A DNA stretch of 40,398 bases from the UHGV virus genome UHGV-0331319, one strand, 5' to 3'. Positions 4,489-40,398 of this stretch are shown here, piece after piece. This DNA is from a virus. Under the pieces are notes generated by a model, which was not told where the DNA came from, ran no database searches, and worked only from the letters and a program-made list of their open reading frames with translations. The position numbers and the translations under genes are program-made. The first letter of the stretch is position 1. Each line of letters starts with the position of its first letter.

Positions 4489-5019
4489 TCAATCATCCCA
4501 CAGGTTGATTCCTTCCGTATCATCTTCGTCCAAAGAAAGCGCCGCAGGCTTTTTCTTTACTTCTTTATCATTCTTATATTCTTTATCATTCTTGTTAGTT
4601 GTCGGCTCTTTGTCAGGTCTTTGTCGGCTCTTTGTCGGCTCTTTGTCATCTCCCTTGCCACTGACAAGGTCACGGCTCTGATATTTCTCCCAGTTTACAA
4701 TGGTTATGAGTCTTCCTGTCTTTGTCGATGCGTTTGTCAAAAAACCAAGTTTTTCAAATCTCTCAAGCGCGGTTCGCACATTTCTGATTGAAACCCCATC
4801 TCCACATTCCCTAACTAAAGAATTTAGACTTGTAATCAATTGTCCAGGCATGCAAGTAAACTGTTCGCCTTTCCATTCCCACTTATTCTCTTCATGATTT
4901 GCCAATAACAGAATCGTAATAAGCACGACCTTCTGTTCTGGAGAAGAAAGCTGCCATATGGATTTCGATTTCAACTCCCGGTATAACTTCACCCATCCAC
5001 CATTAACCATACTCTCCAT
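4489..5019 (-). CDS. phage replisome organiser / DnaD-like replication initiator
   Basis: N-terminal GWVKLYRELKSKSIW...LLANHEENKWEWKG block typical of phage replisome-organiser N-terminal domains; Lys/Glu-rich repetitive C-terminus encoded by iterons; sits immediately upstream of the primase-helicase. Confidence 0.6.
   Translation of the reverse strand: MESMVNGGWVKLYRELKSKSIWQLSSPEQKVVLITILLLANHEENKWEWKGEQFTCMPGQLITSLNSLVRECGDGVSIRNVRTALERFEKLGFLTNASTKTGRLITIVNWEKYQSRDLVSGKGDDKEPTKSRQRPDKEPTTNKNDKEYKNDKEVKKKPAALSLDEDDTEGINLWDD
4561..4596. repeat. two AT-rich 15-bp direct repeats TTCTTTATCATTCTT adjacent to the iterons (candidate DNA-unwinding element)
   Basis: ttctttatcattctt at 4561-4575 and 4579-4593. 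Confidence 0.45.
4601..4644. repeat. four tandem 11-bp iterons GTC(G/A)G(C/G)TCTTT plus a partial fifth copy
   Basis: gtcggctcttt / gtcaggtcttt / gtcggctcttt / gtcggctcttt read directly; period of one helical turn; inside the replisome-organiser gene. Confidence 0.65.
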
Positions 5020-5539
5020 TCTCCAATCGCTCCTTCAAATCCCTGTACAGAATCTCCCGGATCAATCTGCCAGAAGTCTCTTCCTTACAGAAAACCACAT
5101 TCATGTTGTAGCGGACCATCCAAGCCATCGCAGATGCTGTAAATGCATTTGCATTGACTTTACTTCGATATTTTCCGTTTATGAGATTCTCCCAGCTGGC
5201 ATTTTCACACAGCAAATAAATCCTGCAGCCCTGGTCCATTGCGCGCTCAAATTCTCTCTGAAATCGCTGGCGGCCCTGTGCGAAGCACCTCGCCAGCTCA
5301 TCCAGATCCATTTTTCTCTCCACTGCACAGATTGGGTTTATAGTTGCAGAAACATCATAGATCTTTGATCCATTTGGAAGCGTGGCATTGTAGGCGTAAT
5401 CGCCATATGACAGGGTAGCCGGGGAGTATGGTACTTCAAATGATTCCATCCTCTTCCTGGATCGTTCCGTTGGCTGCTCTCTACGATCCACTAAGATCTC
5501 GAAAGACCTAAGCACTTCCTTTTGCTCAAATATCTCCAT
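5003..5539 (-). CDS. ERCC4 (XPF/Mus81/Hef)-type nuclease
   Basis: ILVDRRE ... GDY ... ERKxxxDL signature blocks of the ERCC4 nuclease domain; GAGGAG + 5 nt + ATG (MEIFEQ). Confidence 0.65.
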   Translation of the reverse strand: MEIFEQKEVLRSFEILVDRREQPTERSRKRMESFEVPYSPATLSYGDYAYNATLPNGSKIYDVSATINPICAVERKMDLDELARCFAQGRQRFQREFERAMDQGCRIYLLCENASWENLINGKYRSKVNANAFTASAMAWMVRYNMNVVFCKEETSGRLIREILYRDLKERLENGEYG

Positions 5540-5547
5540 CTTACTCC

Positions 5548-6144
5548 TCAATCAAACGGAAGCGAATCATCTTCCCTTTCTGGAATCTGCATGAAATCAT
5601 CATCCGCTACACCCTGTTTATTTACCTTATTATTTTGCAGAAGCTTATCTTTTGGTAACTTAAAAGTTTTTGATCTTATTTTCTCTACGGCACACATCTG
5701 AGCCAGATTGGTGGTCCTTTTTACAGTTCTATCATTTGCTTCATACTCTCGCTCATTAAATAGGCCGCCAACCAGTTTTCCTTTGAATTTCTTTTCATCC
5801 CAGTCAAAATGGTATCCTGGATTAGAATCTTCCAATGCCGCTATGACTGTTTTAAATCTTCTCTTAGTCCATCCGTCCTGTTCTGATCCATCGTCATTCG
5901 GAACGTTAAGTAAATAGTTGCAGTGCCATTTTTTGTCCTCTTGCTGCTGGTTTCTGTACTCATTGGCGTAAAAATCCTTATACTCCCCTTCTGCTATATC
6001 GCAACTGATCTTTATGTACTCTCCTTTGCTGTTTTCGCAGACCTCAGCCCCCATGATCCTAAGTACATAACCATCCTTCGGAAGCTGCTGGAAATCAGTG
6101 TACGCCTGAGTTTCGTTGTAATCATTAAATCTTTTAATTGCCAT
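5548..6144 (-). CDS. DUF669-like phage ssDNA-binding/annealing accessory protein (Sak4 partner)
   Basis: N-terminal pattern (FNDYNETQAYTDFQQLPKDGYVLRIMGAEV...ISCDIAEGEYK) and position directly after a Sak4-like ATPase; AAAAGGAGAAGG RBS. Confidence 0.5.
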   Translation of the reverse strand: MAIKRFNDYNETQAYTDFQQLPKDGYVLRIMGAEVCENSKGEYIKISCDIAEGEYKDFYANEYRNQQQEDKKWHCNYLLNVPNDDGSEQDGWTKRRFKTVIAALEDSNPGYHFDWDEKKFKGKLVGGLFNEREYEANDRTVKRTTNLAQMCAVEKIRSKTFKLPKDKLLQNNKVNKQGVADDDFMQIPEREDDSLPFD

Positions 6145-6162: not shown

Positions 6163-6810
6163 TTAATATTCTTCCAATGCTTTGATTACAGTTGCAATAT
6201 CATTCGGGATCTCGTCCTCCTCAAAGGCTCCGATCGGCGTCTTAACAGAATTGCGATCAGAATGCGTATGAAAAATATACTGTCCATCCTTACACTCTGC
6301 TAAAAGTACCGTTGTCAGTTTTGACTCTAAGACAATCTTGTCCAGCTTTCGTCCATTCGTTTTGATTCTGGTAAATACAATCCCATTATCATCAGAGATG
6401 GTTTCCGAATGTGCAATAATGATCACAGTTAAGTCATCGCGCATAGTTAAAGCATAATCTATGATCTCCCAAATATATGATGCGAGATCCGTCCATTTAC
6501 CATATCCCTGAACCTTGACATTCCGCATTTCTTCCGCCACCATGATTCCATTGATCGTGTCAATCACAACTGTTTTGATATGTTTTGCTTTTTCTGATTC
6601 ATTGATATTGTGGAGCACCTTTAATACGATTGACGGAAGATTTGTCTGTTGAAAGTTATTTAGTCCATCGTTATACTGCTTTTTCCATCCTTTCCAATTC
6701 AGCCCCTTTTTATCGCAATCAAAATAGAAGGTTGTTGCTGGGTCGAGATTTCGGCAGCTGGCAGTCTTTCCGGCCCCGCTCTCACCCATAATACCGATTA
6801 CTTTTGCCAT
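6163..6810 (-). CDS. Sak4-like RecA-fold ATPase (AAA_24-type)
   Basis: Walker A GESGAGKT at residues 9-16, Walker B-like VVIDTI, about 215 aa, typical Sak4 size and context. Confidence 0.65.
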   Translation of the reverse strand: MAKVIGIMGESGAGKTASCRNLDPATTFYFDCDKKGLNWKGWKKQYNDGLNNFQQTNLPSIVLKVLHNINESEKAKHIKTVVIDTINGIMVAEEMRNVKVQGYGKWTDLASYIWEIIDYALTMRDDLTVIIIAHSETISDDNGIVFTRIKTNGRKLDKIVLESKLTTVLLAECKDGQYIFHTHSDRNSVKTPIGAFEEDEIPNDIATVIKALEEY

Positions 6811-9385: not shown

Positions 9386-9820
9386 ATGGGAGAAATCGAA
9401 CAAATAAAACGTCTTGTTGCGTATTACAAAGGAAATTATGCTACAAATGACCCTTTTGAAATTGCCGACCGCATAGGAGTCCTCTATCAGATAGGTAATT
9501 GTAAGCATGAGGGCTGTTACATGTTTCTGAAAAACCATCGGTATATATTTCTCAGCAACAAATTAAAAGGGATTGAACTAAAAGTTGTTATGGCTCACGA
9601 ATTAGCCCATGCCATTTTTGACAGAAAAGAAAACTGTTATTTTATTCGCAATAAAACTTTGTTGCTTAATTCTAAAACAGAACGTAGAGCAAATCGGTTC
9701 GCGGCGTATCTTTTGATTGATGATGATCTGTTAGAGTATTATGAGAATTACACAAAAGAACAGTTTTGCGACTGTACGGGATTCCCTAAAGAGTTAATTG
9801 AACTGAGGTTAAGACAATGA
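9386..9820 (+). CDS. ImmA/IrrE-family zinc metallopeptidase (anti-repressor protease)
   Basis: HEXXH motif (MAHELAHAIFD); ATG after AGGTGA; paired with the upstream XRE-HTH gene. Confidence 0.75.
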   Translation: MGEIEQIKRLVAYYKGNYATNDPFEIADRIGVLYQIGNCKHEGCYMFLKNHRYIFLSNKLKGIELKVVMAHELAHAIFDRKENCYFIRNKTLLLNSKTERRANRFAAYLLIDDDLLEYYENYTKEQFCDCTGFPKELIELRLRQ

Positions 9821-10887
9821 ACATTTTTACTTTTTTCAAGAACAGATGCAATAGCAATAAAAAAGACAATGTATTATCAGAGACATCAACCATTGATAGC
9901 TTTAATAATATTATAAAGCATAACTTGGAAGAACCTCTAGGTATCATTACAAACTATTCTCAAGACGGCTATGTATTAAGTAACATGGAGAATATTTTAG
10001 TTCCTCAAGCCATGGAAGAATGCCAAACAGATTTTATAAACACTCTGATTAAATTTAATTCTCCAGCTACGCTAAAATTAGTGCTTTTTGATAGTAGTTC
10101 TATTGTTTATAATATTTACAATCCAATTCCGCATATGTTAATTCCAGTTATGACGAACACAGATCTATGGGCTCGTGTGCTTGCTTTTGTATGCTCAGAA
10201 ATCCAAGATAGAACATACAAATTTTTAGAGGTGGAAGCCAAAAATGTTGATAACTATAATAAAATAATCCATTCTGCAGGTGGAGAACAGTTACCCAAAA
10301 TTGTAATTATTGTGAACGAAATTCATGATTTACCAAATACTGCCGAAGATAGTTTATTGCAACTGCTTTTGAAATCTAACCGTGTAGGAATATATTTAGT
10401 TTTATTTTCTAAATTTAGCATTAAAAATCTAGCACTTGGTATAAAAATGGATCTATTAAAAGTATACAGCGGCAGCCAGTTAAATCAGGTATTTAATTTG
10501 ACTAATCAATTATCCGATAATAAGCAAATTAATCTTTCATATGACAACATGGATGGTCATCAGTTCGAGTATTTTTGTGCAACTCTTCTCAAAAAAAATG
10601 GTTTTGTAAACGTCTCTGTTACCCAAGGAAGTGGCGACCACGGTATTGATATTCTAGCAGAGAAAGATGGAATAACTTATGCTATCCAATGTAAATGTTA
10701 CCAATCAGATATAGGAAATTCAGCTATACAGGAAGCTCATTCGGGAAAAGGCATATATAAAAGAGATATTGCCGTTGTTATGACTAACAGATATTTTACT
10801 AAGCAAGCTATAAATGATGCCAATGCTCTTGGCGTAAAATTATGGGATCGAACACAATTAGAAAAGTTTGTAAACAACTCTAAATAA
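9817..10887 (+). CDS. Mrr-type PD-(D/E)xK restriction-endonuclease-domain protein with an N-terminal degenerate FtsK/SpoIIIE-like domain, 356 aa
   Basis: C-terminal GHQFEYFCATLLKKNGF...GSGDHGIDILAEKDG...AIQCKCYQ matches the Mrr catalytic-domain pattern; central LPKIVIIVNEIHDL...LLQLLLKSNRVGIYLVLFSKFS resembles the Walker-B/arginine-finger/ATQRP blocks of FtsK-like ATPases, but no Walker A is visible; strongly AT-rich relative to neighbouring genes. Confidence 0.65.
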   Translation: MNIFTFFKNRCNSNKKDNVLSETSTIDSFNNIIKHNLEEPLGIITNYSQDGYVLSNMENILVPQAMEECQTDFINTLIKFNSPATLKLVLFDSSSIVYNIYNPIPHMLIPVMTNTDLWARVLAFVCSEIQDRTYKFLEVEAKNVDNYNKIIHSAGGEQLPKIVIIVNEIHDLPNTAEDSLLQLLLKSNRVGIYLVLFSKFSIKNLALGIKMDLLKVYSGSQLNQVFNLTNQLSDNKQINLSYDNMDGHQFEYFCATLLKKNGFVNVSVTQGSGDHGIDILAEKDGITYAIQCKCYQSDIGNSAIQEAHSGKGIYKRDIAVVMTNRYFTKQAINDANALGVKLWDRTQLEKFVNNSK

Positions 10888-11065: not shown

Positions 11066-12271
11066 ATGGGACAACTGAGAACACGCAAACGCGGATCCAC
11101 CTGGGAATGGTCCTTTGAAGGCGCCAGGATCAATGGTAAGCGCAACCCGATCAGCCAGGGAGGATATCGCACCAAAGGTGACGCGATCACTGCCGGCACC
11201 CAGGCTAAAGCCGAATACGATAACGCTGGGCGAAGGTTTACACCCTCAGACATCAGTGTTTCGGATTATTTGGATTATTGGTACGAAAATTACGTCAAAA
11301 CAAACCTGGCACACAACACCCAGGTAAGCTACGAGCGTTTACTTCGCGTCCACCTTAAACCTACTTTTGGGAAATACCGGCTTTCAGCGTTGGAAACCGA
11401 TGTTATTCAGAAATGGGTGGACGGCATGAAGCGCCAAGGCTATTCCAAGAGCATGGTCAAAAATACGCTGTCCTGCCTGTCTGGCGCCCTGGGGTACGCC
11501 GTATACCCCTGTAGATATATCAAGTATAATCCCTGCGATTATGCCAAACTCCCCAAAATTGCTGTGTCTGAGGAGACCAAGGCGCACACGGAATATATCT
11601 GTGGCAAAGAGGACTGGACTGCTATCATTGACCGGTTCGGCCCAGACAGCAATTTCTACCTTCCACTTATGACCGGGTATCACTGTGGTACCCGGCTTGG
11701 GGAGACCTATGGCATTGATCTGCTGCATGATGTGGACCTTGACAACCACGCCATAACCATCCGGCATCAGTTGTCCAATGAGGGCGGGAAATGGTACTAT
11801 AGGCCACCAAAATATAATTCCGTACGGACAATAAAGATCCTGCCAGAGTATGAAAGCATCCTGAGGGCTGAAATCCATGAACGCAAAAAGAACATGCTGC
11901 GGTATGGCCAGTACTTTACCCGATCCTACCAAATGGATGATGGTCTAATCTTCCAGGCTCCCGCCAATGTCCAGATTACAGGAACGGAGATTATGCCGAT
12001 CAGCACTAAGGAGAATGGCGAGTTGCTAACCCCCTACTCTTTTAAATACTGTGCCAAGGTCATCCATGAGGAATTGGAAAACCCATTATTCCACAGCCAC
12101 TGCCTACGCCACACACACGGCACGCTGTTGGCAGAGAATGGAGCCCAGCCCAAAACAGTCATGGAACGCCTGGGCCACAAGGACATCAAGACTACCATGA
12201 ACCGTTATGTATTCAACACGGAAAAGATGCAAAACAATGCCATGGTAATTCTGGCAGATGCCATATCGTAG
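11066..12271 (+). CDS. tyrosine-type site-specific integrase, 401 aa
   Basis: C-terminal HCLRHTHGTLLAENG ... LGHKDIKTTMNRYVF (R-H-R-Y catalytic signature); N-terminal arm-binding-like domain; GGAGGAATGATAT-ATG start. Confidence 0.85.
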   Translation: MGQLRTRKRGSTWEWSFEGARINGKRNPISQGGYRTKGDAITAGTQAKAEYDNAGRRFTPSDISVSDYLDYWYENYVKTNLAHNTQVSYERLLRVHLKPTFGKYRLSALETDVIQKWVDGMKRQGYSKSMVKNTLSCLSGALGYAVYPCRYIKYNPCDYAKLPKIAVSEETKAHTEYICGKEDWTAIIDRFGPDSNFYLPLMTGYHCGTRLGETYGIDLLHDVDLDNHAITIRHQLSNEGGKWYYRPPKYNSVRTIKILPEYESILRAEIHERKKNMLRYGQYFTRSYQMDDGLIFQAPANVQITGTEIMPISTKENGELLTPYSFKYCAKVIHEELENPLFHSHCLRHTHGTLLAENGAQPKTVMERLGHKDIKTTMNRYVFNTEKMQNNAMVILADAIS

Positions 12272-12618
12272 CGATCTTGCCTACCGTTTAAAAAAGGGTA
12301 GGCAAGGGGTAGGCAAGGCAACCACTCAGAGCGGATAAATGGCCCGTCACCCCTTGATTTTACGTGATAATTTCACAACAGTTTCCACATGATTCGTTTA
12401 TTGATATCCAACCACGTACTAGCATATTTTTGCGCATTTTGCCATAAAACACCCCCTGTTTTAAAGGATTTAAGAGAGACTTTTATACATATTGGCACAT
12501 ACACACACATGTTGGCATATATTAACACATGCGCAGGGTAGACAAATGGTAGACATTGCCTACCAAATAGCGAAAGGCGGGCCCGGTCACACATCACCGG
12601 TACCCGCCTCGTTACATT
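12272..12618. other. candidate attP: about 350 bp non-coding region with six arm-type repeats GGTAG(G/A)CA
   Basis: direct copies at 12297-12307, 12308-12318, 12537-12545 and 12548-12555; inverted copies at 12276-12285 and 12557-12564; A-tract and TTGGCA(C/T)AT repeats between them; immediately 3' of int. Confidence 0.45.
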
Positions 12619-12834
12619 TTAGTTTGACCGTGGACATGGACGCCTATTCCATCTCCCGTCTTCAAATCCTACTCTATAACCATCATTAAAACCTTCCCGA
12701 TATGCCCAACGCCTCTCATTGGCGCACGGGTCCCAATTGTTACCCCAGTTTCCGCCCCAGTTATTTCCTCCACCAGAACTGAACCACCACGGGCAGCAAC
12801 AGCAGCATCTACAGCAACATCTACAGCAACACAT
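12619..12834 (-). CDS. extremely Cys-rich small protein, 71 aa (MCCCRCCCRCCCCC... followed by a Gly/Asn/Trp-rich repeat)
   Basis: strong AGGAGGAG RBS 6 nt before ATG; 16 Cys in total, 11 in the first 14 residues; GGGNNWGGNWGNNW repeat. Confidence 0.55.
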   Translation of the reverse strand: MCCCRCCCRCCCCCPWWFSSGGGNNWGGNWGNNWDPCANERRWAYREGFNDGYRVGFEDGRWNRRPCPRSN

Positions 12835-13390: not shown

Positions 13391-14230
13391 CTCTCCCAGC
13401 CCCGGCCACCGCAGCGCCCCGTCCTGATCGGGTGTCAACACCACCGGATCCATGGACAACTTGCCGTCCTGGTCCAGATAATACCACTTTCCGCCACTGG
13501 CCTGCAGCCCCTTGACCATGGCTCCATCAGCCCCCAGGTAGTACCAGTCACCCTTGTACTGATACCAGGTGTTGATCACCATGCGACCGGCGCCGTCAAA
13601 CCAGTACCACTTACCGTCTGTATCCAGGTACCAGCTGTTGCGCACACAATCTCCTGTGTTGCCCAGGTAAAAGCTTCGGGATCCATCTTCATTCTGTCTC
13701 CATCCTGATAATTTAGGTTCCTCCGGCTCCGTCACTGCATCATCCTGTATGTATCGTTTTACAGCCACCAGGCCCTTACGCCAGCCCCCAGACGCCCAGG
13801 AGTTATACCGGCTCTTGCAGTAGGCCACCAGATCTTTGTAGGACGGTCTTCCGCTGCCATGTCCGCAGATAATACCATCTCCACAGTACATCTCCACATG
13901 GCCGATCCGCTTTGGCCTGCTGGCATCCGTACCGGCAAACAGCAGCATGTCCCCTGGTCGTAACCGGGACGTGTCAGGGATGCCCTGGGCTATATCCGCA
14001 TCCACTGTGGTCAGTTTGGTAGAGTTGTACATGCCTGCGGTGTTTGTGATCCCGAAGCCTTGCCCTGCCTGCTGATAAGCGTAGCAGATGGAGCTGCTGC
14101 AATCACTGTAATAGTTGCCGTCCTTGTATGCCTTATAGCAGTAATCCCGTAAGGACTGGCTGTATATGTTGCGGCCTATGATCTCTGCATACTTGTCGAT
14201 CACGGCCTGTCTCCTTAATAATGCTGTCAT
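13388..14230 (-). CDS. endolysin: NlpC/P60-type (Cys/His) peptidase domain plus C-terminal choline-binding-type cell-wall-binding repeats
   Basis: catalytic Cys (YSDCSSSICYAY) and His (IGHVEMY) blocks; C-terminal aromatic repeats GKWYWFDGAGRMV / GDWYYLGADGAMV / GKWYYLDQDGKL. Confidence 0.8.
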   Translation of the reverse strand: MTALLRRQAVIDKYAEIIGRNIYSQSLRDYCYKAYKDGNYYSDCSSSICYAYQQAGQGFGITNTAGMYNSTKLTTVDADIAQGIPDTSRLRPGDMLLFAGTDASRPKRIGHVEMYCGDGIICGHGSGRPSYKDLVAYCKSRYNSWASGGWRKGLVAVKRYIQDDAVTEPEEPKLSGWRQNEDGSRSFYLGNTGDCVRNSWYLDTDGKWYWFDGAGRMVINTWYQYKGDWYYLGADGAMVKGLQASGGKWYYLDQDGKLSMDPVVLTPDQDGALRWPGLGE

Positions 14231-17121
14231 GTCGTACCTCCATTTCTAATTTCGTCAATCTGTGCCATGATATCCACGATCACCGCCCTAGTATCCTGCA
14301 CATACTCCACCGCCACGTCTGGTTCCGGCCCTCCTGCGGTAATGGTGATGTGGGTGGTGCCGGTAAAGGTGGTAAGGGCGTTTAGGGCGGATTGGGTCGC
14401 GGCGGGGAGGGGTTCCCAGGTGGGGGCATCCAGGACAAACATTACGTATACATCATGGTCTGTTACATATTGTTTGATGGCTGTATTAACCTCGGCAAAT
14501 GTGGCGGTTGTCAGTACTCCAAGGGCTGTTATTGGCACCGTAATATATATCGCTCCGAGAGAATTGATTGTATAAATATTATCCCTGCCGCCTTTTGGTA
14601 TATTCCAATCGTTAACTATACCAGCTTGCGCTATGTTGCAATAGCCGGTTGCTTTAACCTCATTGCTATATATCCTAGCTTTATTCAAACCGTTATAGCG
14701 TTTTGAATATATGGCAGTGTACCTATTATCAATAATGCAATTGGGATAGGTGCTGGTCATGCTTCCGGCTGATGGTATTACCGTATCTTCGGTTAGTTTG
14801 CCTAACAAGATGTTTCGCTCCACGCCCCACTCTCCATCCTTACACAGGATTCTATCCCTGTACTCTCCAATGCCATATAGTGGGGCTGTCAGTTGGATGG
14901 TTGCGGTCTTGGACTGGTAGGGCTGCCAGGGGAGGGCTGTGCTGCCAGCATTAACCATTACCTTCTGAGTACCAGAGACTATTGCTTCTCCCGCCATACC
15001 ATAATATCCAAATTTGATATATAAGGTATTCATATCTGCTGCATTCGGGATCGATTCGGTTACTTTAGTTACTCCAGTCAGCTGTAGAGTTTTTACTGTT
15101 CCGTTTTTATCATAAAAATTAAAAAAGAAATATGGATAAACAGAGACATTAGAGTATACTGTAAATGTTCTTTCGCTTTTAATTAACGCCATTGTTTCTT
15201 CATGTGTTAGCGAAATTGTATTTCCAAAATTTTCCTGTAATGCACCGCTCCCAGCTACCGTAAAGCTCCCATCGCTATTATTGGTTACTGTAGCACCACC
15301 AGTGCTTTTGTTAGGTATCCTGCTGGCATCAAATAGCTGATCCCCCATCACCATCACATCCAACGGCTGCGGATACTCCTCTGATGGGCTGGGTTTGCCA
15401 CCGGTGTAGGGTTCCCAGGGGAGGGCTGTGCTTCCAGCATTAACCATTACTTTTTGAGTACCAGAGACAATAGACTCATCAGCACGACCATAATACCCAG
15501 TTTGGATATATAGGGTATTCATATCTGCTTCCGCTGGAAGTGACTTGGTAACGCTGGTCACATTTAACAGCAGCAGTCGCATGACCGCTCCGTTTTTGTC
15601 GTAAAATTCAAAGTAGAAATGTGGATACGTTGCAATGTTAGCAGCTGCTGTAAATACCCTATCGTTTCCGATCAATGTCATGGTTTCTTCGTGCGTTAAA
15701 GTACATCTGGTGTCAAGTGTACCTGTCATAGTCCCGGCACCACTAATTGTTATACTGCCATCAGCATTATTGACTATTGTTGCTCCACCCACACTTTTGT
15801 TTAACACTTTACTTGAATCAAACAGTTGCACCCCCGTTGTAACCGTCCCTGTGCTGATAATCGGCTGGGGATAGTCTGGGCTGGGGGAGGGCTGACCTCC
15901 GGTGTAAGGTTCCCAGGGTTTGGCTGTGGATCCGGTATTGATCATAGGATATACAACTGCGCTAAACCCTGACAATCCCTGATATAATTGTAAGAAGCAT
16001 TCGATTTTTGTCTCAGTTCCGTCTACTAAAAAAGATGCATCACTTACAACAGTCGAGGAATCACCATGCCATAGTTTAATCCTCACAAATATCTTGGAAT
16101 CACCTATAGGGGCACTTCCGCTTATGTAGTAAGTTCCGGGTGATAGGGCAACCGTAACAACAGCAGAGTTAGCGGCATTCTGTAATGTATTTCCTGTAAC
16201 TAAAATTCCGCCATCTTCCTCTACAGTAAATTTCACTTCATTATGCATTCGTTCTAATTTAGAACTGTCCAACAACTGCGCACCGGTCGTTGCCACCTGC
16301 TCACTCTCTCCGCTTATCCGCAGGTCAGGTATCGGCGCCTCCCACGCATCCCCCACTGTAACCCGCCCAGTACCGGATGCAGAGCCGATCAGGGCATTGG
16401 CGTACTTAAGATCAGTCTCTCGCTTGTTATAGCCCACAAATGTCTCTTTTTGGCTCTCCACGTAGTCCTTGTTTTCCTGTAACGCCTGTGCTGATGCATC
16501 CGCAGACTGTGCTGCTGCCGTGGCTGATCCCGCAGCCGCAGTCTTGCTGGCCTGGGCATCATTGGCGTATCCCTGGGCAGTGGATACCTTACTCTCCATC
16601 TGCTGTACAAACTGCTCATACCAGGACGGGTCCGGTTCCGGTATACCCCCGCCTATCTCCAGGCCGTCATGGATGGTGTATGTTGCCGGTAGGGTTTTCC
16701 AGATGGTCCGATCCCCCACACTGTTGGTGCCGGTTGCATAGATCATCATCTGGATTGATCCGGGCTCCTGTGTTGCCTGTCCCGGTATCATCCAACACAT
16801 CCTGACGTAATTGTCCGACCATGATACATTACAGGGTACGCCGTCACTGCCACCATAGACTGTCTGGTAGTGGATATACAGATTTTGCTTGGTCAAATCC
16901 ATGGCATCATCATACCGCGGCAGCTGGAAGCCCACAAACTGGGCGTTCTGCTCGCCTCGGACGGATACCTGGTCATTAAAATCTGCAATGCGCTTGTTGG
17001 TGACCGGGACATACTCCGGCTCCGCGTACATGGTGTAGGATGGATAGTTGTTATCCTTGGTCCATGTCTCATCCCCGGCTGCATAAGCCTGTCTTGTAAG
17101 GATCTCGTCTACTGTTGCCAT
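14227..17121 (-). CDS. large tail fibre / host-specificity protein, 964 aa, with an internally triplicated roughly 160-aa module
   Basis: protein repeats ...STA(K/L)PWEPYTGG(Q/K)PSPS(P/E)(D/E)YPQP...; Ala/Gln-rich coiled segment; position between holin and endolysin. Confidence 0.6.
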   Translation of the reverse strand: MATVDEILTRQAYAAGDETWTKDNNYPSYTMYAEPEYVPVTNKRIADFNDQVSVRGEQNAQFVGFQLPRYDDAMDLTKQNLYIHYQTVYGGSDGVPCNVSWSDNYVRMCWMIPGQATQEPGSIQMMIYATGTNSVGDRTIWKTLPATYTIHDGLEIGGGIPEPDPSWYEQFVQQMESKVSTAQGYANDAQASKTAAAGSATAAAQSADASAQALQENKDYVESQKETFVGYNKRETDLKYANALIGSASGTGRVTVGDAWEAPIPDLRISGESEQVATTGAQLLDSSKLERMHNEVKFTVEEDGGILVTGNTLQNAANSAVVTVALSPGTYYISGSAPIGDSKIFVRIKLWHGDSSTVVSDASFLVDGTETKIECFLQLYQGLSGFSAVVYPMINTGSTAKPWEPYTGGQPSPSPDYPQPIISTGTVTTGVQLFDSSKVLNKSVGGATIVNNADGSITISGAGTMTGTLDTRCTLTHEETMTLIGNDRVFTAAANIATYPHFYFEFYDKNGAVMRLLLLNVTSVTKSLPAEADMNTLYIQTGYYGRADESIVSGTQKVMVNAGSTALPWEPYTGGKPSPSEEYPQPLDVMVMGDQLFDASRIPNKSTGGATVTNNSDGSFTVAGSGALQENFGNTISLTHEETMALIKSERTFTVYSNVSVYPYFFFNFYDKNGTVKTLQLTGVTKVTESIPNAADMNTLYIKFGYYGMAGEAIVSGTQKVMVNAGSTALPWQPYQSKTATIQLTAPLYGIGEYRDRILCKDGEWGVERNILLGKLTEDTVIPSAGSMTSTYPNCIIDNRYTAIYSKRYNGLNKARIYSNEVKATGYCNIAQAGIVNDWNIPKGGRDNIYTINSLGAIYITVPITALGVLTTATFAEVNTAIKQYVTDHDVYVMFVLDAPTWEPLPAATQSALNALTTFTGTTHITITAGGPEPDVAVEYVQDTRAVIVDIMAQIDEIRNGGTT
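14924..14984. repeat. about 61-bp near-identical direct repeat (copy 1) inside the fibre gene
   Basis: tgccaggggagggctgtgctgccagcattaaccattaccttctgagtaccagagac is repeated at 15413-15473 with about 3 mismatches; a third degenerate copy lies near 15901. Confidence 0.6.
15413..15473. repeat. about 61-bp near-identical direct repeat (copy 2) inside the fibre gene
   Basis: see copy 1. Confidence 0.6.
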
Positions 17122-18207: not shown

Positions 18208-18366
18208 ATACCTCACCTTTCCTCTTCTTTGCCGTATACAATGGTTTAAATACGGCCTGTGTTATCATAAATTACTAACACTTTCATCTTACATTTTCCT
18301 TTCTTCATGATATAATGTGACTATGTAGGTCCCTTTGATTGGGATCTATTTTTCATCTCCTTATAA

Positions 18367-18397
18367 TTGGGGTTACAGGAAGTTGGGAAGGGTATGT
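18367..18397. repeat. 31-bp perfect inverted repeat, copy L: TTGGGGTTACAGGAAGTTGGGAAGGGTATGT
   Basis: identical to the reverse complement of 19287-19317. Confidence 0.9.
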
Positions 18398-18821
18398 ACC
18401 CGAATCAAAAGACCTGTATTATAAAGGGACCAATTCTGGCAATTTAAAATTCGGCACAGCCTTTACGTTTGTCTCGGGCGGATCTGTTATTTTTGATACG
18501 GCTCAAATGACATGCAAGGCTGATAACGGAGCGGCATTTAGATGCTGTTACTTATATCCCAGCGCATCACATAATTTAACTCCTTACAGTGCATTAAAGG
18601 TAGACTTTCGGGCTGGGACTGGAAAACTTACTGCCGACTCCAAGTTATACTACGGCACCAGTCTATCCGCAGTTACCACAGATTCGGTGGGGGGATCCTT
18701 AAGTGGCAATACCTTATCATTTAATATCAGTGCCATTAATGCAACGCGATATATCGCGCTTTATTTATACTGTAGTGGTGCTGGGGTTACATTTTATATT
18801 GACCGGGTCTATTTTGCATAG
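18367..18821 (+). CDS. silent alternative tail-fibre C-terminal cassette (variant B), inverted relative to the expressed fibre gene
   Basis: starts inside the 31-bp inverted repeat and encodes GVTGSWEGYV...DLYYKG..., the same junction peptide as residues about 107-125 of the minus-strand fibre protein, then a divergent roughly 130-aa domain; no ATG or RBS of its own at the junction. Confidence 0.55.
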
Positions 18822-18835
18822 CTATAAACTGGACG

Positions 18836-19585
18836 TTACGCTACTCTAATCCTGAAAACATTCCCGGTGAATGGTGTCCTGCTCCATGATGGATCACTGT
18901 CACTTCCATGAGCATCGTTATAATATTCGACCGATAAATAAATCTTTGGGGCAAAAGATCCTGCCAATGCGGTAATATCCGTAACAAGGTCAAGCGTTGA
19001 CTTCAGACCCATGTTGGTCCTAGATGTTTTTATCTTTGTTGACCCATTCCATAGCTCGATGACTGCAATGTAATAGTCAGCATCAGTATAATAATCAACA
19101 CCCGCTAAGTTGAAATTAACAATCAGCTTAGTGTAACCACTCCATGTAAATGCTTTGCCAGCGGTAAATTGGGGATAGGAGTATTTGGTTATTTGAATCC
19201 TGTCTGATCCAAAATACACAGCTGCATTATTGCCTGTGAAGCTATACGCATTATTCCCCTTGTAATATAAATCGGTGGCCGCAGCGACATACCCTTCCCA
19301 ACTTCCTGTAACCCCAAATATCGGCACACCCTTTTTGATATTGGCCGCTTTCAGATTGGGATCCCCTTTGATCGTTTGTGCACCGGTCAAAAACTGGTTG
19401 GCAGCAATGCTCTGGTTCGCCGTTCCTGGTGTATATGTAGCCGCTGCTTTTTCAGTCATGGTGCCAGTTAAGGGATTCCCATTTTTGTCTACGATCACTT
19501 TACCTTTTCTTATATCTGCTGCTGCGGCGGTCACTACATCAAGATCAACTCCGCCTCCGCCACAAGGTATCAAAATATCACTCAT
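18836..19585 (-). CDS. tail fibre / receptor-binding protein, 249 aa, with an exchangeable C-terminal domain (variant A currently in frame)
   Basis: constant N-terminus (about 1-106) then GVTGSWEGYV junction encoded by the inverted repeat, then a variable domain ending at 18836. Confidence 0.65.
   Translation of the reverse strand: MSDILIPCGGGGVDLDVVTAAAADIRKGKVIVDKNGNPLTGTMTEKAAATYTPGTANQSIAANQFLTGAQTIKGDPNLKAANIKKGVPIFGVTGSWEGYVAAATDLYYKGNNAYSFTGNNAAVYFGSDRIQITKYSYPQFTAGKAFTWSGYTKLIVNFNLAGVDYYTDADYYIAVIELWNGSTKIKTSRTNMGLKSTLDLVTDITALAGSFAPKIYLSVEYYNDAHGSDSDPSWSRTPFTGNVFRIRVA
19287..19317. repeat. 31-bp perfect inverted repeat, copy R
   Basis: reverse complement equals 18367-18397; lies inside the fibre gene at the constant/variable junction. 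Confidence 0.9.
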
Positions 19586-39373: not shown

Positions 39374-39631
39374 TCAATCAGGCACCTCCTCTATTGACCG
39401 CCACGCCACAACCTGGTCAAACGGTATCCTCCTGGCAGTATCCCGGTAATACCATTCCTCATCATCTGTTACAAAAAAACCTATTACCTCGTCCCCGCTC
39501 GCAAGCTGTATCTGGACATCTTCCGAACATCTCTTATAATGCGGAGACCTTAATGGCACATCTTCATCTATTGGAATCCATTCCTCCATGTTTCGCCATT
39601 CCTTTCGTATCGCAAATATCAGTTTAGGCAA
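39374..39631 (-). CDS. hypothetical protein, 85 aa
   Basis: ORF; start overlaps the upstream gene. Confidence 0.45.
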   Translation of the reverse strand: MPKLIFAIRKEWRNMEEWIPIDEDVPLRSPHYKRCSEDVQIQLASGDEVIGFFVTDDEEWYYRDTARRIPFDQVVAWRSIEEVPD

Positions 39632-40070
39632 GTAAGCGATACCACCGAGTTTTCATTTCAGCGGGTATCTCCTGCCCCTTGTTTCGCTCTCCTGTCCAGT
39701 GTGTTCCGCCAGCTTCTCCGTCACACAAAAAGCCGCTGGCCTTCAAACTGGTTCCCGGTTCACTCTGTAAAATATAGGTGATGATCTTCCGGTACCCCAT
39801 ATCCTTTGCGATCCGGCAGCATGCCCCATATAACATGCTGCAAGCATTGTATGTACCGTCAGTACATAATCTATTAATTTCACAGGTCAGACCATCATCC
39901 AGGTATCGGCTCACTGGCCTACCACATACGGCACAGCCTATTATCTGTTCTCCCTCATACAGCCCGACCGAAAACTTATGGCCGACTGTAGCATTATGAT
40001 GGCGGTGATACAAATTTATAAAGTCACTGGCCTGTCTGAATGTGATTGGTTTAATTTCCGTATCCCTCAC
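39624..40070 (-). CDS. hypothetical Cys/His-rich protein, 148 aa
   Basis: YHRHHNATVGHKFSVGLYEGEQIIGCAVCGRP...EINRLCT; no confident family assignment. Confidence 0.45.
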   Translation of the reverse strand: MRDTEIKPITFRQASDFINLYHRHHNATVGHKFSVGLYEGEQIIGCAVCGRPVSRYLDDGLTCEINRLCTDGTYNACSMLYGACCRIAKDMGYRKIITYILQSEPGTSLKASGFLCDGEAGGTHWTGERNKGQEIPAEMKTRWYRLLA

Positions 40071-40316: not shown

Positions 40317-40398
40317 TATTCTTTTCACCTCCAAATGCTAATTCTCGTGCTTTCTAATTAGCTGTTCACATTCCTCCGCTGTTAATTTACACTGACAA

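Follow-up and report, generated by a model that had tools for sequence, protein, structure and literature searches.

The virus genome UHGV-0331319, a stretch of 40,398 nucleotides analysed here in full (the window), carries on its minus strand the gene of a 249-residue tail protein (18836-19585), whose 3' part lies in a segment bracketed by a perfect 31-bp inverted repeat. The repeat, TTGGGGTTACAGGAAGTTGGGAAGGGTATGT, occurs exactly twice, at 18367-18397 on the plus and at 19287-19317 on the minus strand. The window holds no further copy even if up to three mismatches are allowed, and 100 dinucleotide-preserving shuffles of it gave no match to the 31-bp repeat, which is real and not a product of chance. 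Inwards, the similarity extends to 72 nt with 76% complementarity (18363-18434 and 19250-19321). The copy inside the gene covers codons F90-V100 (FGVTGSWEGYV), at the junction of the constant part and the C-terminal domain. The other copy starts a plus-strand frame, GVTGSWEGYVPESKDLYYKG, which repeats the GVTGSWEGYV..DLYYKG of the gene junction and continues into an unrelated 130-residue domain that ends at 18821. The initial annotation, made from the sequence alone, had proposed this arrangement as an invertible tail-fibre switch, and it placed both the repeat and the gene junction correctly. It had also described the plus-strand frame as devoid of start codon and ribosome-binding site; the latter holds, whereas a TTG at 18339 formally opens a 160-residue open reading frame (ORF), with no Shine-Dalgarno sequence.

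The segment thus described contains two opposed cassettes (Table 1), the expressed cassette A and the silent cassette B, which has neither promoter nor ribosome-binding site of its own. The hairpin just outside the distal site would stop transcription into the silent cassette, and an equivalent hairpin with T-run, read from the sequence, stands at the same place outside the distal site of the related locus L015. A promoter-like element with an extended -10 (CTTACA-17-TATAAT, with TG before it) was also noted within 18288-18359 (+), followed within 10 nt by the hairpin and T-run. Further out, 18246-18287 (-) holds a 13-codon remnant (MKVLVIYDNTGRI-stop) of a 114-residue gene that is intact directly downstream of the switch in L015 and L091.

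Table 1. Features of the switch locus and of the integration module, with positions in the window, and arms of the corresponding sites in two related groups.
Feature	Position	Strand	Description
Invertible segment, 951 bp	18367-19317		Bounded by both repeat copies
Constant 5' part of tail-protein gene, residues 1-89	19318-19585	-	Outside the segment; conserved N-terminal module
Cassette A, residues 90-249	18836-19317	-	Expressed state here; predicted β-sandwich domain
Cassette B	18367-18821	+	Silent, reversed; encodes GVTGSWEGYVPESKD... and then a predicted all-β domain of 130 residues; sequence unrelated to A
Putative distal recombination site, holin side	18356-18383	+	Left arm TCTCCTTATAA (18356-18366); spacer TTGGGG (18367-18372); right arm TTACAGGAAGT (18373-18383)
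Putative gene-side recombination site	19301-19328	-	Left arm TGTGCCGATAT (19318-19328); spacer TTGGGG (19312-19317); right arm TTACAGGAAGT (19301-19311)
Terminator-like hairpin and T-run	18325-18359	+	Just outside the distal site, oriented against transcription entering the silent cassette
Tyrosine integrase	11066-12271	+	Pfam Phage_integrase, SAM_3; PHROG 1, E = 1.6e-60; sole recombinase in the phage
attP core GTTTCCACATGATTCGT, 17 bp	12381-12397	+	Bracketed by the attL/attR junctions of integrated copies L062-L069 and L075-L077
Site arms, L082-L107 group			Left AATGCAAATAA / AAGAGCCATAA / TCTTGCGATAC; spacer TATTGT; right TTATGGGAAGN
Site arms, L158-L162			Left TGTGTTTGGAA / TTCTTTTAGAA / TCTCACGATAA; spacer TAAAGA; right TTACAGGAAGY

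The segment inverts in nature and does so recurrently in three lineages. An exact search of IMG/VR with the 31-mer retrieved three contigs, of which one is collinear with the window while in the other two its positions 18363-19321 run opposite to both flanks and the breakpoints fall in the repeat. In the two flipped contigs the gene runs into cassette B as an intact 240-residue ORF, and cassette A lies reversed beside the holin gene. The same inversion relative to both flanks, again with breakpoints within the repeat, was found in L001, L002, L014, L017, L071 and L073-L077. The metagenome contig L074 is identical to the window in 10,299 of 10,299 positions on the gene side and differs at five of 5,741 on the holin side (99.9% identity), with the segment flipped between them. 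As orientation differs even between genomes that match completely over 10 kb, the inversion rate must lie far above the mutation rate.

The protein sequences agree with this. Inverting 18367-19317 in silico yields a 240-residue protein identical to P0150, which is annotated as WP_207660568.1 of Enterocloster citroniae; cassette B is also expressed as the C-terminus of P0149, P0138 and other 240-residue proteins, and the prophage of E. citroniae DSM 19261 is in the B-on state. Three N-terminal haplotypes, told apart by several substitutions, are each fused to A and to B: H1 is A-on in the window and B-on in P0150, H2 is A-on in P0125 (Clostridium sp. FS41) and B-on in P0003, P0136 and P0138, and H3 is A-on in P0001 and P0123 and B-on in P0007 and P0149. 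Both cassettes have thus been seen expressed as well as silent and reversed, in three separate phage lineages, and the outcome foreseen in the initial annotation, with variant B in frame and A silenced, exists in natural genomes alongside its counterpart. Among loci found irrespective of orientation, one was A-on and five were B-on, and in one more (L072) the silent slot was occupied by a third type of cassette. A search of JGI metagenome contigs with a degenerate repeat pattern returned only three loci, too few for an orientation census, and protein cluster sizes are unusable as such a census since active and silent ORFs cluster together.

Loci of the same design were found in more distant relatives. 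L015, from a metagenome-assembled genome (MAG) of Clostridium sp. and 61% identical over the N-terminal part, contains a separate repeat of 80 nt whose first 20 bases are the same. In the L082-L107 group, eight IMG/VR contigs with both site copies show the repeat (L082-L105), and six more, among them L084, L088, L100, L106 and L107, have this site at just one of their ends. Here the repeat is located 25 nt further upstream in the gene, at the NIVYGK codons, with a perfect 16-bp core (TATTGTTTATGGGAAG), and the distal side has at least two tandem sites 35 nt apart. The contigs display every permutation expected from inversions between any opposed pair, with either cassette (X or Y) in the on state or with the 35-bp stub in first place. 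The group (L082, L083, L085, L088, L091, L098, L100, L101 and L104-L107, gene positions +235 to +1060) presents itself as a three-element shufflon of two cassettes and a site-bearing 35-bp stub. In 6 of 14 contigs the stub comes first, which leads to a frameshift and a truncated tail protein and may represent a programmed OFF state or a dead-end product. L162 (ENA ERZ28601413 scaffold_3475, 672-2377) contains three full cassettes and sites at 941 (+), 1435 (+) and 2327 (-), all with the spacer TAAAGA; as two of these are direct repeats, the enzyme must avoid deletion. In the switch-less relatives L016, L018 and L023, other codons specify the same FG(V/I)TG peptide.

Two further observations concern these relatives. 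In the distant homologue L016 (Logan SRR29048508, 9945-13193) a repeat covers the ribosome-binding site, start codon and first codons of two convergent genes of 327 and 450 residues, a layout that suggests whole-gene exchange behind one translation start. Many contigs end in or just after the conserved N-terminal part, 220-420 nt past the start (L021, L022, L023, L100, L106, L107, L108 and L123), and three of these, from the mouse-gut Bacilli MAG MGBC156923 (L021, L022, L023), end at the motif. Such ends may be assembly breaks at a locus present in several orientations.

The comparison of lineages narrows down where the strands are exchanged. The codon after the right-arm GGA moves with the cassette, expressed or silent (AGT for Ser in A, ACC for Thr in most B), the Pro/Ser codon 11 nt upstream remains with the flank, and the base immediately before TTGGGG differs between the two copies, identity starting at the first spacer base. 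Exchange must therefore take place in the ~26 bp surrounding TTGGGGTTACAGGAA, whose 15 bases are all that the copies in H2 and H3 share perfectly. The perfect 31-bp repeat of the window results from a conversion in its lineage, by which the repeat tract of cassette B took on the sequence of cassette A. At the same codon (19301-19303 and 18381-18383), near-identical homologues such as P0144, P0159 and P0162 encode Ser, Thr, Asn, Arg or Ala. The Asn, Arg and Ala codons are not obtainable by mixing AGT and ACC alleles, and the variability could be real or assembly noise at a heterogeneous site.

All sites align as 28 bp, in which a 6-bp spacer separates a left and a right arm of 11 bp each. Spacers are the same within one phage and different between phages (TTGGGG, TATTGT, TAAAGA, TTGGAG), and they are always asymmetric. 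The right-arm motif TTAYRGGAAG stays in register with the crossover, also where the encoded peptide is VYGK and not VTGS. The gene-side site spans the codons for V-P-I-F-G-V-T-G-S; the distal left arm is non-coding, yet similar in distant relatives (TCTTGCTATAA in L015, TCTCACGATAA in L161). Inverted arms around an asymmetric spacer of 6-8 bp that is identical in partner sites are the anatomy of a tyrosine-recombinase shufflon, seen here at the sequence level. In addition, the layout ATAA-N6-TTAY with 11-bp arms is the architecture of dif (11-6-11, ATAA-N6-TTAT). Reverse-complemented, the right arms ACTTCCTGTAA and ACTTCCCATAA agree in 10 of 11 positions with the XerC arm of Staphylococcus aureus dif (ACTTCCTATAA) and in 9 and 8 of 11, respectively, with that of Bacillus subtilis (ACTTCCTAGAA), and the non-coding distal left arms agree with the XerC arm in 8-9 of 11. 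A third site-like sequence, AGATGGCGGAA-TTTTAG-TTACAGGAAAT, was noted at 16189-16216 (-) inside the gene of a 964-residue protein (codons GGILVTGN). It is kept in all close relatives that span the region, but it should not recombine with the switch because its spacer differs from TTGGGG.

The protein affected by the inversion belongs to a large family: its N-terminal ~100 residues have 973 database homologues with highly diverse C-termini of 130-150 residues. A tblastn search of 50,697 records of cultured phages found no homologue, and scans for Pfam and PHROG tail-fibre families gave no match, so no homology of the Mu S, P1 S or T4 gp37 type was seen. AlphaFold modelled cassette A confidently as a β-sandwich, with a predicted local distance difference test score (pLDDT) above 90 over most of residues 101-249 of the A-on protein. 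Foldseek relates this domain to the carbohydrate-binding modules CBM29/6/61/35, to 'tail protein' entries of uncultured gut phages, to lambda gpJ and to tailspike tips. Cassettes A and B have only the DLYYKG linker motif in common. A fold search with the B-on model was dropped because the model confidence was too low. Judged from the fold of cassette A, the flip most likely changes the cell-surface glycan bound by the virion, and an effect on host range would be expected.

We consider it fairly probable that the locus is a working two-state inversion switch in a receptor-binding tail protein, operated by a recombinase acting in trans, for which an Xer/RecV-like tyrosine enzyme is our favoured candidate. 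The late operon on the minus strand would be transcribed through the constant 89-codon module and the recombination site into cassette A, with cassette B reversed just downstream behind the second site copy. Conservative site-specific recombination between the two 28-bp sites would then flip the 951 bp, fuse cassette B in frame and silence cassette A. The recombinase would be supplied by the host, which is the more probable source, or by a co-resident element, and would recognise the dif-like arms. That the process is site-specific and not homology-driven is indicated by the 15-16-bp cores and the exact register.

The proposal of a trans-acting enzyme follows from what the phage lacks. IMG/VR contigs L024 and L025 join base 40398 of the window directly to base 1, so that the 40,398 bp of the window make up the whole circular genome; this rules out one option left in the initial annotation, namely an invertase elsewhere in the phage. 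Its observation that the 40 kb contain no serine recombinase was borne out: Pfam and PHROG scans of all sizeable ORFs of the circle revealed no serine recombinase or resolvase domain and only the integrase as a recombinase, the ORFs being otherwise accounted for, and tblastn with Hin and Gin gave a best E of 0.4. With no invertase encoded by the phage, the enzyme would have to act in trans. The likeness to the Mu G and P1 C switches that had been pointed out holds for the architecture, whereas for the enzyme an Xer/shufflon-like tyrosine recombinase fits the site anatomy at least as well as the Gin/Hin type.

Several points weigh against the switch as proposed. Neither the scans of the phage genome nor tblastn across the 157 relative loci found an inverting recombinase. 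Where dif combines one XerC with one XerD arm, both arms here are XerC-like; the right arm TTACAGGAAGT agrees with the XerD arm TTATGTAAACT of Firmicutes dif in 6 of 11 positions, as counted by eye, and is not XerD-like, so the site is not a true dif. An arm match with at most one mismatch is expected by chance ~3.9 times per window, the resemblance to dif, like that to gix, reaches only ~p = 0.002 for the repeat itself, and the same bases agree in 11 of 12 positions with a Gin gix half-site. On the protein side, the receptor-binding role is read from gene position and predicted fold only, and the model of cassette B is all-β but of low confidence (mean pLDDT 56). Finally, the orientations come from assembled contigs of different samples and strains, and hence describe differences between genomes and not reads from one clone.

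A more specific form of the proposal is tentative. In this scenario the phage would hand the choice of receptor to a host Xer-family tyrosine recombinase, and the sites would be pseudo-dif sites (two XerC-type arms and a 6-bp spacer) flipped by the machinery of chromosome maintenance or phase variation. This would amount to a hijack for inversion resembling that of integrative mobile elements exploiting Xer (IMEX), shared by a family of uncultured Clostridia phages, some of them with a frameshifting OFF state.

The main alternative to an Xer-like enzyme would be a small serine invertase of the Din family (Gin, Hin, Cin or Pin type), encoded by the host or another prophage and acting on 26-bp gix-like sites with crossover at the central dinucleotide (T-TG-GGGTTACAGGAA); we regard this as unlikely. 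In its favour, Din invertases complement each other in trans. The inner 12-mer, reverse-complemented TTCCTGTAACCC, agrees in 11 of 12 positions with the half-site TTCCTGTAAACC of gixL/R and bix (Table 3, PMC3241671), the half-site TTCCCATAAACA of the L082-L107 group agrees in 10 of 12 with the mix site TTCCCCTAAACC, and the repeat identity begins 3 nt ahead of the gix-like 12-mer. However, a one-mismatch match of this kind is expected ~3.4 times per window by chance (a hand estimate from scan counts), and the outer half-sites misfit the Din consensus TTC----AAACC NA GGTTT----GAA even where the inner half fits gix. The three bases beside the centre vary by lineage (GGG, TGT, AGA), although Din sites are most conserved there (AAACC/GGTTT). 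The centres TG, AT and AA do not fit either, and in the L082-L107 group the centre is the palindrome AT, which would leave the site without polarity. Because the Din register misplaces the variable bases, misfits the outer halves and gives one lineage a palindromic centre, the architecture favours the tyrosine reading. An initial gix-like reading of the site was demoted after comparison of four lineages and the dif sites.

Small serine recombinases do occur in related gut phages (L054, L160), which could speak for a Din-like source, but they are unlinked to any fibre switch, and no enhancer-bearing invertase gene was found in cis. Across the 157 loci searched by tblastn, the small serine recombinases (L054, L160, L044, L047) adjoin terminase or early genes, with none near the fibre switch, and a large serine integrase stands at the prophage end in L143.

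Still less likely is that no dedicated enzyme is involved and that the 31-72-bp repeats undergo homologous recombination by host RecA or by the phage's Sak4-like AAA_24 protein (6163-6810) and ERCC4 nuclease (5003-5551). The phage does encode recombination functions, the repeat of the window is perfect over 31 bp and 76% complementary over 72 bp, and the homogenisation of the B repeat tract to A in the window lineage resembles gene conversion. Against this, no more than 15 perfect bases are shared by the copies that switch in H2 and H3, recombination in the L082-L107 group keeps an exact register at cores of 16-20 bp, the motif TTAYRGGAA is fixed relative to the crossover despite encoding another peptide, and orientation differs between genomes identical over 10 kb. 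Tyrosine recombinases can run a shufflon, as does Rci of R64. That the phage's own integrase doubles as the invertase is nevertheless the least likely explanation, for although it is the sole recombinase of the complete genome and the tyrosine recombinase Rin of bifidophages runs a shufflon (PMC6109161), its att core and flanks are unlike the switch arms or spacer, it is of the lambda type with an arm-binding N-domain and lies 7 kb from the switch, and the recurrence of the site design in relatives with otherwise different genomes may also speak against it.

The switch resembles several known systems without coinciding with any. The invertible tail-fibre switches of Mu and P1 are textbook examples in which the phage brings its own invertase. 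As in Mu G, P1 C and e14 P (served by Gin, Cin and Pin), the constant N-terminal part of the fibre lies outside the segment, two alternative C-terminal cassettes stand opposed inside inverted repeats so that a flip swaps the receptor-binding tip, and both orientations occur in natural populations, here between genomes. Unlike in these systems, there is no invertase gene beside the segment or anywhere in the phage, and no U/U'-type tail-fibre assembly gene within it; moreover, the tail protein is unrelated to Mu S and P1 S, and the host is a Gram-positive Lachnospiraceae.

Similarly, the relatives are true shufflons in the manner of R64 and of Min of p15B, with three cassettes in L162 and two cassettes and a stub in L082-L107, whereas two cassettes and one pair of sites make up the locus of the window (three or four sites in the relatives). 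The sfx sites of R64 are asymmetric, one arm and the spacer being well conserved and the other arm poorly, and the same asymmetry is seen here. In contrast to the R64, p15B and Rin shufflons, no rci-like, min-like or flanking tyrosine invertase gene is present, only the integrase at a distance of 7 kb, and what varies is a phage tail protein and not, as in R64, the PilV adhesin. With Xer/dif and IMEX such as CTXphi the locus shares the 28-bp site with 11-bp arms and a 6-bp centre, and the use of a host tyrosine recombinase by a mobile element has a precedent there. Yet Xer serves IMEX for integration and not inversion, the phage integrates by its own integrase at an unrelated site, and the absence of an XerD-like arm sets its sites apart from dif; any Xer involvement is a prediction from site sequence.

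The closest precedent comes from Bifidobacterium prophages (Mavrich et al. 2018, PMC6109161), which are likewise temperate siphophages of Gram-positive gut bacteria and use inversion to vary a tail protein at its C-terminus. Besides the Rin shufflon, which has 11-bp rix sites and a tyrosine invertase of its own next to it, that study described a second, orphan inversion in 689b-1 and Bb423phi2, a ~500-bp flip of a small reversed gene and the 3' end of its neighbour at CAGGGTTA. This orphan locus has no flanking recombinase, and the authors proposed a trans-acting invertase, unprecedented in phages, from two genomes. The present locus is a recurrent example of this orphan type in Clostridia, inverting without a recombinase of its own. 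The only sequence likeness noted is the GGGTTA that the bifidophage 8-mer shares with the junction of spacer and right arm (TTGGGG-TTAC). What goes beyond the earlier case is the absence of an invertase from a whole genome, the recurrence across lineages, the site anatomy and the relatives with multiple cassettes. A search of the literature on invertons of Enterocloster and Lachnospiraceae and on phage tail invertons found nothing specific.

What sets the present case apart is that a temperate phage with a complete genome, whose host is a Lachnospiraceae species common in the human gut, switches between unrelated receptor-binding tips and yet encodes no invertase. The design is found again across a large family of uncharacterised gut-phage tail proteins. 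Should the host supply the enzyme, the host range of gut phages would be set in part by the recombinase repertoire of the lysogen, and half of the receptors would escape phage-host predictions that use a single assembled orientation. Which family of recombinases acts here can be tested directly, given that the 28-bp sites are defined and their spacers co-vary between phages.

The remainder of the genome is that of a temperate siphovirus-type phage with the host E. citroniae, a Gram-positive Lachnospiraceae; the type strain DSM 19261 carries a prophage that is 94% identical, and many copies of the tail protein are annotated to this species. The minus strand first encodes the small and large terminase, portal and capsid proteins and a 1264-residue tape-measure protein. 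Between the latter and the switch are genes for proteins of 132 and 698 residues, with no Pfam assignment, and of 137 and 151 residues. The 249-residue switch protein is followed by a holin, a 136-residue protein, a 964-residue protein and an NlpC/P60 endolysin with choline-binding repeats, and then by attP, the tyrosine integrase, an Mrr/FtsK-like fusion, an ImmA protease, a repressor and the divergent early and replication genes. Integration occurs at the 3' end of a gene of the U5-methyltransferase family (PF05958), and the phage rebuilds the gene end. In L064 and L070 the same integrase gene abuts another target, the large serine recombinase gene of another mobile element.

Some neighbouring genes deserve mention in their own right. 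The 964-residue protein (14227-17121, -), between holin and endolysin, has no family match and contains an internal repeat (14917-15040 and 15406-15529, 84% identity). Its length among close relatives is 964 residues, 649 (L008) or 428 + 207 (L014), and it may be a second variable host-recognition protein within the lysis cassette. The low-GC gene (~34%) at 9817-10887 (+), between the ImmA protease and the integrase, fuses an FtsK/SpoIIIE-like P-loop to an Mrr restriction-endonuclease domain; an FtsK-like gene is also present in the related phages L054 and L160, and the fusion is probably a defence or moron gene. Near attP, a small ORF without family match (12619-12834, -) has an extremely cysteine-rich N-terminus (MCCCRCCCRCCCCC...) and GNW repeats. 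Lastly, a Mom-like protein (39624-40070, -) and a protein with a radical-SAM domain (PHROG 9298; 315-1280, -) lie close to each other across the junction of the circle, a pairing that suggests a DNA-modification module.

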